From the NCBI GenBank assembly GCA_963845385.1, contig CAWJRW010000006.1, forward strand, positions 1,224,910-1,288,909: a DNA stretch of 64,000 bases, in the 5' to 3' direction. The stretch's first letter is position 1, and each line of letters opens with the position of its first letter. This DNA is from an uncultured Alphaproteobacteria bacterium. GTDB lineage: Bacteria > Pseudomonadota > Alphaproteobacteria > CAWJRW01. Below the pieces are notes generated by a model. That model was not told the origin of the DNA. It saw only the letters and a list, made by a program, of their open reading frames with translations, and searched no databases. The position numbers and the translations under genes are program-made. This document shows positions 50,039-52,209 of this stretch, piece after piece.

Positions 50039-50386
50039 CAGTCGCCCGCTACGCGCCCTGGGACGTCGTCATCGTCCCGTTTCCCTATGCCGACAAGCTC
50101 GCCGAGAAGCGCCGCCCCGCCCTCGTCGTCTCCAAGCCCGCGCTCGAAAAGGACCACGGCCTCATCTGGCTCGCCATGATCACGAGCGCGGAGAACCGAG
50201 GCTGGACGGGCGATGTGCCCATCGCCGATCTTGCGCGCGCAGGACTGCCCGCGCCCTCGCTCGTCCGGCCTGCCAAGATCGCCACCGTCGAGAGCGACGC
50301 GCATCCTCATGCGCGTGGGCACGCTTTCCGCCGCCGAGCGGCGCGGCGTGGCTCAAGCGATGGGGCGCTATGCAGTCGCCGATTGA
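50035..50386 (+). CDS. PemK/MazF-family toxin (start codon unclear; one frame break ~50300)
   Basis: ...YAPWDVVIVPFPYADKLAEKRRPALVVSKP...IWLAMITSAENRGWTGDVPI...GLPAPSLVRPAKIATVESD, then ILMRVGTLSAAERRGVAQAMGRYAVAD* one frame over. Confidence 0.75.
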
Positions 50387-50505
50387 TTGCCGTTCAAGTG
50401 CCATTTCGATGAAGGAGCCTGCCTCAAAACGCGCGAAAAAATTCAACTAGCCTTGAACCCCATTTGCATTCGAACCTCTTTCAAGGGGTTTCTCTTGACC
50501 CCTGG

Positions 50506-50844
50506 TCATCCCTGGTAATTAAAATGTCTTCCTTCACCAAAGTCATAAAGCTGAATGCTCCGGCCATTGATAGAGCCTTGGAAGTGGCAGCCGGAGTTGT
50601 AATCGTAGCCCGAAAATGAGTTCCCATTAATTGCGAGGCTAATGTGTTGTCCCAACCCATGATGATAAAGGGTTGCGCCGTTACCAGAAACATGGGCTCC
50701 CGCCTGATGATCATAAAAATTGTCAGCGCTACCGCTCATGTTGATATGTCGGCCTTCCGAATAGCTGTAGATCGAGTTCGGTGAATGACCTGTGGCACGA
50801 GCCAATACAGCGAACGCAATTGCACGACGGGTCTCTTCGTTCAT
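50506..50844 (-). CDS. Hypothetical 112-aa protein with five degenerate ~18-aa 'Y-x4-G-x-H-(I/V/F)' repeats; low-GC
   Basis: ORF 50506..50856. The ATG at 50844 is preceded by GGAGGTGA. The repeats are SYSEGRHINMSG / FYDHQAGAHVSGNG / LYHHGLGQHISLAING / GYDYNSGCHFQGSING / LYDFGEGRHFNYQG. The gene lies 21 nt downstream of the LexA-like gene. Confidence 0.6.
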   Translation of the reverse strand: MNEETRRAIAFAVLARATGHSPNSIYSYSEGRHINMSGSADNFYDHQAGAHVSGNGATLYHHGLGQHISLAINGNSFSGYDYNSGCHFQGSINGRSIQLYDFGEGRHFNYQG

Positions 50845-50865
50845 GAAAACACTCACCTCCAGTGA

Positions 50866-51495
50866 TCATTCAAATGGCTTCGAGACTGTGGCAATGACTA
50901 CGCCCTGCACCATGAAATCGCGCTCTAAAATGATTGGTTGATGTCTTGTGTCGTTCGAATGCGGTGTGAGGACAACTTTATCGCCTCGGCGCCCGAACTT
51001 CTTGATGGTCGCGGCATCGTCAATAAGCGCAACGACGACCTCACCGTCTTGTGCGACCGGTTGTTGACGAACAAGCACGAGATCGCCGTCTTCAATACCC
51101 CCTAGATTCATCGAGTTCCCAACCGCACGAAGAAGGAAATAGCTCGCCCCGGGTCGTGCGAGCCGCTGAGAGACGGGAACCATGGCCTCGATGTTTTCCT
51201 CGGCGAGCATTGGCAACCCACAAGGCACTGCTCCCACGAGCGGAATTTCGATCGTCCGCTCCATATGCATCTCGTCGACAATGTCGCGGATAAGTCTAAG
51301 TTTCCCCGTCGGCGTGCGCGCGAGATAGCCCTTCTTGATGAGGCGCTCGATTAGCAGCGATGCCGATCGGCGGGATTTGAAGCCCACATGATCACAGATC
51401 GCTTGAAGAGTGGGCGCCCGCCCGCGGTACAGAATGCTGTCGCGGATGAGGCCTAAGCCCCTAATTTCATTTGGTTTATTCCCTATTGTAGCCAT
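50866..51495 (-). CDS. LexA-family (winged-helix + S24 peptidase) repressor paralogue; low-GC
   Basis: Intact 209-aa ORF. LexA-type wHTH (APTLQAICDHVGFKSRRSASLLIERLIKKGYL), linker IPLVGAVPCGLPMLAEENIE, Ser motif AVGNSMNLGGIEDGDLVLV and Lys in ATIKKF. Confidence 0.85.
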   Translation of the reverse strand: MATIGNKPNEIRGLGLIRDSILYRGRAPTLQAICDHVGFKSRRSASLLIERLIKKGYLARTPTGKLRLIRDIVDEMHMERTIEIPLVGAVPCGLPMLAEENIEAMVPVSQRLARPGASYFLLRAVGNSMNLGGIEDGDLVLVRQQPVAQDGEVVVALIDDAATIKKFGRRGDKVVLTPHSNDTRHQPIILERDFMVQGVVIATVSKPFE

Positions 51496-51497
51496 GG

Positions 51498-51510
51498 TAT
51501 CCAGAGGATA
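51498..51510. promoter_or_regulatory. Perfect 13-bp palindrome abutting the LexA-like start codon (candidate operator)
   Basis: TATCC-AGA-GGATA, 3 nt upstream of the ATG (51495). It sits in the 75-nt divergent spacer toward the small plus-strand ORF. Confidence 0.3.
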
Positions 51511-51569
51511 TACTTTGTCTACTAGCGGTGCAAGTCCGCGTCAGGACCAGCGGTCAGTGGAGACGATTC

Positions 51570-51716
51570 ATGGCTCGAAAGCAGAAGCCACCCGATTGGA
51601 ACAAGGCGCAGCCACACCATGTGGTGACTGGCAAGATCACCACCAGAAAGTTCGCCGATGCTCACCCAGAGAAAGTTGAGTGGGTGAGAGGGAAAAAGCC
51701 CAAGGAAAAGGGATAG
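51570..51716 (+). CDS. Small basic hypothetical protein (48 aa), divergent from the LexA-like gene
   Basis: MARKQKPPDWNKAQPHHVVTGKITTRKFADAHPEKVEWVRGKKPKEKG. GGAGA lies 7 nt upstream of the ATG. It is part of ORF 51528..51716. Confidence 0.35.
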   Translation: MARKQKPPDWNKAQPHHVVTGKITTRKFADAHPEKVEWVRGKKPKEKG

Positions 51717-51937
51717 CGGCGACTTTCGCAGCGCTGCCAAGGGTTAAGGCGCACGATTTGCCTGTATTCCTCACGGCCTGCGACGGGCCGTCCGAGTAGC
51801 GGCCGCTCGGAAAGCAGCCTCGCCTTTTCCATGATTTCGGCCGCAGCGATGGCCGCAAGGTTGGGATGATGCTCGTGGAGAAACAGGGCGAAACGGTCGA
51901 GGTCGGCCAGCGCCTCGGCCGACCATTCGAGCTTCAT
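51662..51937 (-). pseudogene. ParE/RelE-family toxin, divergent copy with aberrant 3' end
   Basis: MKLEWSAEALADLDRFALFLHEHHPNLAAIAAAEIMEKARLLSERPLLGRPVAGREEYRQIV..., but the expected ...Y..Y....I.ILRV.H tail is missing in all frames. ATGA overlap with the upstream antitoxin. Confidence 0.6.
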
Positions 51938-52209
51938 TGGTCGCGCCATGCGCGGAAAGCGGGCGTGCCCCAGCTTTCGAGACAGCGCACGACCTTTTCG
52001 TGGGGGACGGTCTTGCCGCCCGTCTCGACGGATTTCCAACGCCGATCAAGCTCGGCGACCGTTTCCGCCTCGGAAAATCCCGGCGCAGTCTCGGGCGCCA
52101 CAAGCTCAGCGAGGAGCTCGGAAACCGTGATCCCCCGCGCCGCCGCGCGCGCTTCGAGCGCGTCGGCGGTCGCGGCATCGATCTCGATCTTGCGCAGCTT
52201 GATGGTCAT
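51934..52209 (-). CDS. Ribbon-helix-helix antitoxin (ParD-like), divergent copy
   Basis: Intact 91-aa ORF. MTIKLRKIEIDAATADALEARAAARGITVSELLAEL... The N-terminal 35 aa are nearly identical to copies 2 and 3, while the C-terminal half is different. Confidence 0.75.
   Translation of the reverse strand: MTIKLRKIEIDAATADALEARAAARGITVSELLAELVAPETAPGFSEAETVAELDRRWKSVETGGKTVPHEKVVRCLESWGTPAFRAWRDQ

Follow-up and report, generated by a model that had tools for sequence, protein, structure and literature searches.

A second LexA-like repressor, with Cys-Gly at its predicted cleavage site, as the probable switch of a small acquired cassette in an alphaproteobacterial genome

Introduction

Why would an alphaproteobacterium keep two LexA-type repressors, and what would the second one govern? 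The question is raised by a 64,000-nucleotide (nt) stretch of DNA from an uncultured Alphaproteobacteria bacterium (assembly GCA_963845385.1, contig CAWJRW010000006.1, positions 1,224,910 to 1,288,909 of the forward strand), here called the window, in which a 209-residue LexA-like protein is encoded at 50866-51495 of the minus strand. The answer that we favour, and to which we assign a probability of about two in three, is that this protein is an accessory, horizontally acquired LexA-family repressor acting as the switch of a small mobile cassette. On this account the second lexA of the genome would be explained as imported cassette control, and not as a duplicated SOS system. The locus also touches on an active question, namely how abortive-infection and other costly defence systems stay silent until they are needed. 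An earlier note on this DNA, made from the letters and their open reading frames (ORFs), had already proposed a second self-cleaving repressor; a divergent 48-residue gene, a probably leaderless architecture and an association of the protein's clade with defence operons are the points at which the present analysis goes beyond it.

Results and discussion

A LexA-like protein with its predicted cleavage residues in place

The gene and the residues of interest within it are as follows.

50866..51495, minus strand: LexA-like repressor gene of the Cys-Gly clade, 209 amino acids (aa), from the ORF list, Pfam, TIGR00498 and AlphaFold2/Foldseek
51217..51222, minus strand: codons of Cys92-Gly93, predicted scissile bond, aligned to Ala84-Gly85 of E. 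coli LexA
51112..51114, minus strand: codon of Ser128 (GNSM), predicted nucleophile, aligned to LexA Ser119 in an invariant column
51001..51003, minus strand: codon of Lys165 (TIKKF), predicted general base, aligned to LexA Lys156 in an invariant column

Pfam recognizes a LexA_DNA_bind domain (PF01726) at residues 14-63 (nt 51307-51456; E=2.1e-8, 34.3 bits versus a cut-off of 23.7) and a Peptidase_S24 domain (PF00717) at residues 85-201 (E=2.1e-26), and no domains other than these. Against the NCBIfam lexA equivalog TIGR00498 the protein scores 151.2 bits, above the cut-off of 110.95, and the best Foldseek matches of its AlphaFold2 model (mean predicted local distance difference test score, or pLDDT, of 75.9, with both domains at 80-90) are the full-length LexA structures 3k2z, 3jso, 1jhh and 8trg. 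The ORF aligns full length to its relatives, despite indel errors in the assembly. The description of a 209-residue protein with a LexA-type winged helix and an S24 domain, given in the earlier note, is therefore borne out by Pfam, TIGR00498 and Foldseek alike.

Residues were mapped with HMMER against the LexA chains of the Protein Data Bank (PDB) and with a separate alignment of the LexA-like protein. In the HMMER alignment PLVGAVPCGLP of the LexA-like protein pairs with PLVGRVAAGEP of LexA, so that the Ser/Lys dyad and the replacement of Ala-Gly by Cys-Gly, both claimed previously, are confirmed; what does not hold is the view of Cys-Gly as a peculiarity of this one gene. Among the 120 closest relatives x-Cys-Gly occupies the cleavage position in all 120, and it reads as a clade-wide trait rather than a local substitution; the G-x-S-M motif, too, is found in every one of them, and A-T-x-K in 115. 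There is moreover a precedent for such a site in E. coli UmuD, whose S24 domain has the same C-G-(F/L)-P cleavage motif and is cut at Cys24-Gly25, a competent site dependent on activated RecA (PMC5342242, PMC8565304), although UmuD is a polymerase subunit without a DNA-binding domain and not a repressor. By alignment, every sequence determinant of self-cleavage is kept in the LexA-like protein.

A second copy beside a canonical lexA

The genome, 3.09 Mb in 10 contigs, contains recA and another lexA at C6:975476-976201, about 300 kb from the LexA-like gene and with two alphaproteobacterial SOS boxes (GAAC-N7-GAAC and GTTC-N7-GTTC) directly upstream. Since this canonical lexA with its SOS boxes lies elsewhere, the LexA-like gene is a second copy and not the SOS master regulator of the host. 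The earlier note had suggested as much, had seen no alphaproteobacterial SOS box at the gene, and had allowed that the idea would fall if the gene proved to be the organism's only, canonical lexA. It is not the only one, and neither GTTC-N7-GTTC nor GAAC-N7-GAAC occurs within 50300-51800.

The canonical gene has an oddity of its own, in that it reads in the +1 frame from about residue 44 to about residue 83, across the recognition helix and the wing, owing to an inserted A in CATC[A]GGCTC and the loss of a base near CCAAAAGGG. Taken at face value, the frameshift over the DNA-binding helix would leave the LexA-like protein as the functional SOS master regulator, a proposition to which we give next to no credence. 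In the same assembly the essential rpoB gene (C6:453369-457414) is broken over three frames, and for this reason the two compensating frame changes in lexA are probably assembly indel errors and a true inactivation of canonical lexA was rejected; an assembly indel error would also account for the 73% completeness estimate. Further against the proposition, the LexA-like operator motif described below has only one genomic occurrence, and neither recA nor any other SOS gene carries it, while 56 GTTC-N7-GTTC-type boxes are spread genome-wide for the canonical protein. Two traits of an SOS master regulator, a lineage SOS box in the islet that surrounds the gene and vertical inheritance, were both not found for it.

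A single putative operator overlapping two putative promoters

The gene start and the spacer before it hold three candidate regulatory elements.

51497..51513, minus strand: putative operator GTATATCCTCTGGATAC, ending 1 nt before the ATG, at a 17-bp position shared with relatives
51505..51533, minus strand: putative promoter of the LexA-like operon, TTGCAC at 51528-51533, 17 nt, TATCCT at 51505-51510, in a conserved layout
51486..51514, plus strand: putative divergent promoter, TTGTAG at 51486-51491, 17 nt, TATACT at 51509-51514, seen also in relatives

The perfect palindrome on which the earlier note had based its operator, TATCC-TCT-GGATA (TATCC-AGA-GGATA on the plus strand), is indeed present at 51498-51510, although 2 nt and not 3 nt from the ATG at 51493-51495, and is nested in the 17-bp element with its centre 1 bp off. 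About one 5+5 palindrome of this kind is expected per genome and exactly one was found; taken alone it is weak evidence, and its weight comes from its position in a conserved element. That element follows the pattern GTATAY-N2-T-N2-G-N-RTAC at the same 17-bp position in six loci of relatives (L006, L008, L009, L090, L091 and L093), while L104, an 80%-identical relative, reads GTATACAGGTATGATAC and shares GTATA-N7-GATAC with the window. The inner arms TATCC/GGATA are absent from L104, and it is the outer GTAT-N9-ATAC that close relatives keep (RTAC in some), so that the palindrome stands as part of a conserved element and its arms do not stand as the conserved half-sites. Distant members of many phyla have the palindrome ATACA-N3-TGTAT at this position, together with TTGACA, 17 nt and TACACT. 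The exact operator half-sites are what we infer from this comparison.

The 17-bp pattern has a single occurrence in the 3.09-Mb genome; no further operator copies were found genome-wide, and one other GTAT-N9-ATAC, lying inside a coding region, is fewer than chance would give. Because the putative operator element occurs once, the predicted regulon of the LexA-like protein is local, and the private specificity proposed in the earlier note is supported.

The ATG of the LexA-like gene lies 9 nt past the putative -10 and has no Shine-Dalgarno sequence. Close relatives (the six loci above and L104) have TTGC-N2, 17 nt and TAYNCT at a fixed distance, again with no Shine-Dalgarno sequence; more widely, 31 of 32 loci are without a Shine-Dalgarno-like motif before the ATG, and in 23 of the 32 the best sigma-70-like -10 ends 5-11 nt before it, with a mode of 9 nt. 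As the Shine-Dalgarno sequence is missing and the promoter abuts the start codon across loci, the arrangement suggests a leaderless mRNA for the LexA-like genes, of the kind transcribed from PRM for lambda cI. On the other strand, the divergent -10 TATACT is kept in 8 of 9 close loci, with a -35 that varies (TTGTAG here; TTGTCG, TTGCAC or TTGTGC). The putative divergent promoter extends across the putative operator and the opening codons of the LexA-like gene, the left half of the outer GTAT-N9-ATAC doubling as its -10, and because this -10 overlaps the same element a single bound dimer could silence both promoters.

A three-gene cassette in a low-GC islet

The LexA-like gene belongs to a compact group of genes set apart from its surroundings by guanine-cytosine (GC) content.

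50440..51721, no strand: low-GC islet with the three-gene cassette, about 1.3 kb, delimited by GC and L104 homology, left edge approximate
50506..50856, minus strand: downstream repeat-protein gene, 112 aa from the ATG at 50844 (likely) or 116 aa from the GTG at 50856
51570..51716, plus strand: divergent small gene, 48 aa, basic, MARKQKPPDWNKAQPHHVVTGKITTRKFADAHPEKVEWV..., with a GGAG Shine-Dalgarno sequence and homologues in relatives

The repeat protein has five Y-x-x-x-x-G-x-H hairpin-like repeats and found no match in Pfam (also at E<=1), NCBIfam, PADLOC or PHROGs, nor in a word-based homologue search. Its ATG at 50844, preceded by GGAGG, stands 21 nt past the LexA-like stop codon, and given this spacing the two genes are likely co-transcribed. 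A consensus scan of the islet called no terminators. For the 48-residue protein, Pfam, PHROGs and PADLOC gave no match; AlphaFold2 models it with a pLDDT of 78 as strand, strand, helix, strand, and Foldseek against the PDB returned nothing below E=2. A profile search of 1.84 billion representatives gathered 31 clusters of 38-55-aa proteins in its family. In L104, L006, L091 and L093 a homologue is likewise encoded divergently from the LexA-like gene, heading Bub operons in L006 and L093. Basic proteins of 45-49 aa divergent from Cys-Gly LexA-like genes share the pattern K..DW.KAQPH...TG.ITT..YA..HP.KVEWV.

L104, an independent metagenome contig from an unrelated sequencing run, matches this cassette at 80% nucleotide identity, with the order of the three genes unchanged and all ORFs open, from 50684, where its contig ends (within the repeat gene, whose first 53 residues are about 80% identical), to 51721, just past the small ORF. 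Since the same three genes recur there in the same order, the cassette is a unit and not a local accident. In the window a MazEF-like pair flanks the islet on one side and ParDE-like units on the other; the right edge of the islet was set by L104, as the ParDE units gave no breakpoint and share 158 nt only.

The islet might instead be the decayed remnant of a defence island, such as a Bub operon headed by the small ORF, with a LexA-like protein that only autoregulates or is silent. The small ORF is, after all, the first gene of the Bub operon in L006 and L093, what comes after it in the window is just a convergent ParE-like gene, and the islet is wedged among toxin-antitoxin genes. We nevertheless consider decay unlikely: L104 has the same three genes without Bub and with homology ending after the small ORF, the small ORF of L091 is likewise without Bub, and the catalytic residues of the LexA-like protein are all intact.

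A phylum-mixed clade and a foreign gene

The GC content of the islet is 0.49-0.58 versus 0.63-0.72 in its flanks. No close homologue of the LexA-like protein was found in 40 genomes of the same class, where the best match, 33% identical, is canonical LexA, and of 400 genomes sampled evenly across the phylum a single one had a member of its clade (E<=1e-40). Some 2,350 proteins match at E<=1e-10; the best 120, at 52-86% identity, are for the most part some 205-215 aa in length. Maximum-likelihood analysis places 38 relatives in a single group (SH-aLRT branch support 98), apart from E. coli LexA, the LexAs of Bacillota and the genome's own LexA. Within this group, members of Bacteroidota, Planctomycetota, Nitrospirota, Acidobacteriota, Pseudomonadota and candidate phyla are mixed together. 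The low GC, the rarity in class and phylum, and a phylum-mixed clade separate from the canonical LexAs mark the LexA-like gene as horizontally acquired. Genomes outside the Bacteroidota that have clade members hold a better-scoring canonical LexA together with one to four clade copies, whereas the sampled Bacteroidota genomes have clade copies only.

What clade members adjoin

Gene context was surveyed at about 35 loci of the clade, and cargo was counted where it was co-directional within tens of nt downstream or divergent from a shared promoter. The following neighbours were found.

L006, L008, L093, L105, L024: Bub operons (Multi_ubiq, ThiF/DUF6791, BubE)
L014: type II CBASS (cyclic-oligonucleotide-based antiphage signalling system), phospholipase-cyclase-E1/E2
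L034: type II CBASS, cyclase-E1/E2-JAB
L090: DUF2188, cyclase, NucC
L023: DUF2188, transmembrane effector, cyclase
L025: CBASS cyclase
L029: Dsr1
L019: DUF2188, TIR
L091: PDC-M48B metallo-beta-lactamase-fold protein
L013: Abi_C
L010, L015, L011, L018: DNA methylases
L022: HNH and Prok-E2_E
L092, L033: DUF3892
L016: UmuD-UmuC
L017, L021: ImuB-like and DnaE2-like

Bub and CBASS (including type II) thus each occur five times beside clade members. The translesion-polymerase cargo is a classic SOS-controlled function and for that reason supports a genuine damage responsiveness of the clade. The defence cargo is also that reported for the regulator pair CapH/CapP, namely CBASS, DUF2188, DUF3892 and ubiquitin-like operons (10.1101/2022.04.27.489752), and the regulators reported for Bub operons are CapW, CapH+CapP and CapK+CapS (10.1101/2024.11.21.623953, PMC13373217). 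LexA goes unmentioned in these papers on the CapH/CapP and Bub regulators (10.1101/2022.04.27.489752, 10.1101/2024.11.21.623953, PMC13373217), and targeted full-text literature searches turned up no account of LexA-type regulators as a family placed before immune operons; the Cys-Gly LexA clade is widespread and apparently undescribed, and its members usually stand immediately before antiphage defence operons. Its outstanding traits, as read from these loci, would be the invariant Cys-Gly, the leaderless promoter with embedded operator, and the place before immune operons.

These surroundings bear on the comparison drawn in the earlier note with phage CI and with SetR-type repressors of integrative and conjugative elements (ICEs). 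The private specificity in that comparison is supported; the clade adjoins defence operons and not the lysogeny modules of phages or ICEs. Still, the protein could be a prophage CI-type or ICE SetR-type immunity repressor governing lysogeny or transfer. Phages and ICEs typically encode S24 repressors that have private operators, several clade loci have an integrase or serine recombinase gene no more than a few kb away, and the PHROG matches 'transcriptional repressor' and 'UmuD-like' span the S24 domain of the LexA-like protein. We regard this as very improbable. The N-terminal domain is a LexA winged helix, and Pfam, Foldseek and inspection of the islet ORFs found neither a CI-type helix-turn-helix nor any lysogeny or transfer module for the gene; the islet is about 1.3 kb long with three small genes and, by its ORF list and Pfam, no phage, integrase or transfer gene; and the relatives adjoin operons for defence or for polymerases in place of lysis, lysogeny or transfer functions.

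A different trigger is also conceivable. The repressor might answer not to RecA but to the 48-aa protein as an antirepressor, or to modification or oxidation of the invariant Cys, with the S24 domain serving mainly for dimerisation or a slow, gated cleavage. Cys is strict at the P1 position (120 of 120) even though Ala works in LexA, which suggests selection for Cys, and a conserved small partner gene accompanies several clade members. These observations are offset by the conservation of the Ser-Lys dyad and the P1' Gly, as real cleavage predicts; by UmuD, which with its Cys-Gly undergoes RecA-dependent cleavage (PMC5342242); by the clade members that precede UmuDC and ImuB-DnaE2, classic RecA/LexA-controlled functions; and by the absence of the small ORF beside most clade members. 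We therefore hold a trigger other than RecA to be improbable, slightly more so than decay of the islet.

Two side observations concern the clade loci. A protein of about 81 aa with DUF2188 is the first gene after the LexA-like gene in 6 of about 30 loci (L012, L019, L023, L026, L031 and L090), followed, where the contig continues, by a CBASS cyclase, NucC, a transmembrane effector or a TIR protein. Bacteroidota have been described as being without canonical LexA homologues (PMC8565304), and yet their genomes, that of the isolate Gillisia lutea among them, hold winged-helix genes of LexA type with TIGR00498 scores above the cut-off, and these lie (L014, L016, L017, L019, L021, L025, L026, L028, L030, L032, L034) beside UmuDC, ImuB-DnaE2 or CBASS.

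Comparison with known regulators

With canonical LexA (E. coli; TIGR00498) the LexA-like protein shares the winged helix and S24 domain, the overall fold and the Ser/Lys dyad; the predicted cleavage site lies at the equivalent position, and the gene has the same autoregulatory layout. It differs in having about 34% identity, Cys-Gly instead of Ala-Gly, a separate clade and an origin by horizontal acquisition, and its gene has no SOS box, a single predicted private target site and an apparently leaderless mRNA.

The relatives resemble CapH+CapP, CapW/BrxR and CapK+CapS in that they directly precede, or are divergent from, cassettes of the CBASS, Bub/ubiquitin-like, DUF2188 and DUF3892 kinds, and in both cases a DNA-damage signal is expected. 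No homology connects these regulators (helix-turn-helix plus metallopeptidase in CapH/CapP, WYL in CapW, STAS/GHKL in CapK/CapS) to the LexA-like protein, nor does any PADLOC model match it. The proposed design differs as well: the LexA-like protein would be a single self-cutting sensor of RecA filaments, while CapH/CapP uses a separate metallopeptidase activated by single-stranded DNA, CapW a WYL domain and CapK/CapS a kinase.

Accessory LexA or LexA-like proteins that act as local repressors include LexA2 of P. putida, with its imuA-imuB-dnaE2 cassette, PrtR and AlpR of P. aeruginosa, and SetR of SXT. As is proposed for the protein studied here, these are second S24 repressors with private operators that place a cassette under RecA control, and some Bacteroidales members of the clade stand before ImuB-DnaE2 or UmuDC. 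PrtR, AlpR and SetR, however, have CI-type helix-turn-helix domains, and the cargo of the LexA-like gene in the window is a repeat protein and a 48-aa protein.

A model for the switch and its wider meaning

In the model that we propose for the accessory repressor, a dimer would bind the single inverted repeat at 51497-51513, which would overlap its own leaderless promoter (the -10 and the start site) as well as the divergent -10, and would thereby repress the divergent 48-aa gene together with the operon of the repressor and the repeat protein. Filaments of RecA on single-stranded DNA, arising from DNA damage or phage replication, would prompt self-cleavage at Cys92-Gly93 through the Ser128/Lys165 dyad, and cleavage would part the winged helix from the dimerisation domain and derepress both promoters. 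DNA binding, self-cleavage, RecA dependence and leaderless transcription are in each case predicted from sequence. The repeat protein and the 48-aa protein, for their part, may be effector or accessory components of a stress or defence cassette, by analogy with the relatives.

Several observations weigh against this model and the repressor role on which it builds. The linker and cleavage loop of the AlphaFold2 model (residues 74-103) have a pLDDT below 51, and with such low confidence at the loop the model geometry lends cleavage no support. The palindrome in the register of the family is weak in the window, with 4 of 8 positions paired, and part of the element could be conserved as a promoter -10 and not as an operator. 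A consensus promoter scan of the window missed the proposed promoters and called TAGACA-16-TACCAT instead. A promoter-like site at 50865-50894 of the minus strand (TTGCCA, 18 nt, AATGAT), inside the 3' end of the LexA-like gene, could allow repressor-independent expression of the repeat gene, or could be a chance match, about one being expected per region. Finally, the window cargo, the repeat protein and the 48-aa protein, is without known function and without a PADLOC match, and its link to defence would rest on relatives.

If the accessory-repressor reading is extended from this gene to its clade, a broader and more tentative picture emerges, which we put at somewhat below even odds. The Cys-Gly clade would be a portable class of regulator that by self-cleavage wires immune operons (CBASS including type II, Bub, Dsr1, TIR and restriction-modification methylases) and mobile mutagenesis cassettes directly to RecA filaments; the strict Cys, together with a leaderless promoter in which the operator is embedded, would make for a high threshold of induction, and the window cassette would be a minimal effector module triggered by damage or phage. 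Although speculative, the picture would, if true, provide a one-protein counterpart of CapH/CapP, CapW and CapK/CapS. CapW/BrxR, CapH+CapP and CapK+CapS are the three classes described in front of the same cargo, and a LexA-type regulator there would show that immune cassettes have recruited the RecA-LexA switch as a self-contained mobile part. The handle for induction would be a simple one, consisting of one protein and one operator. The clade also includes the winged-helix LexA-type genes that Bacteroidota, reported to be without canonical LexA, do carry by UmuDC, ImuB-DnaE2 and CBASS.

Further observations at the edges of the survey

The ParE-like ORF at 51662-52039 (minus strand) matches only positions 1-58 of the 89-position ParE_toxin profile, and at its 3' end it overlaps the tail of the 48-aa gene; the edge of the islet may have replaced the C-terminus of this ParE-like toxin. 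Lastly, in the metagenome-assembled genome of a Goldiibacteriota member (the genome of L029), contig C47 holds four LexA-type matches within about 100 kb, at 91542-92156, 113752-114351, 118515-119111 and 187184-187567, one of which fronts Dsr1, and this contig may be a defence island with several cassettes gated by LexA-like proteins.

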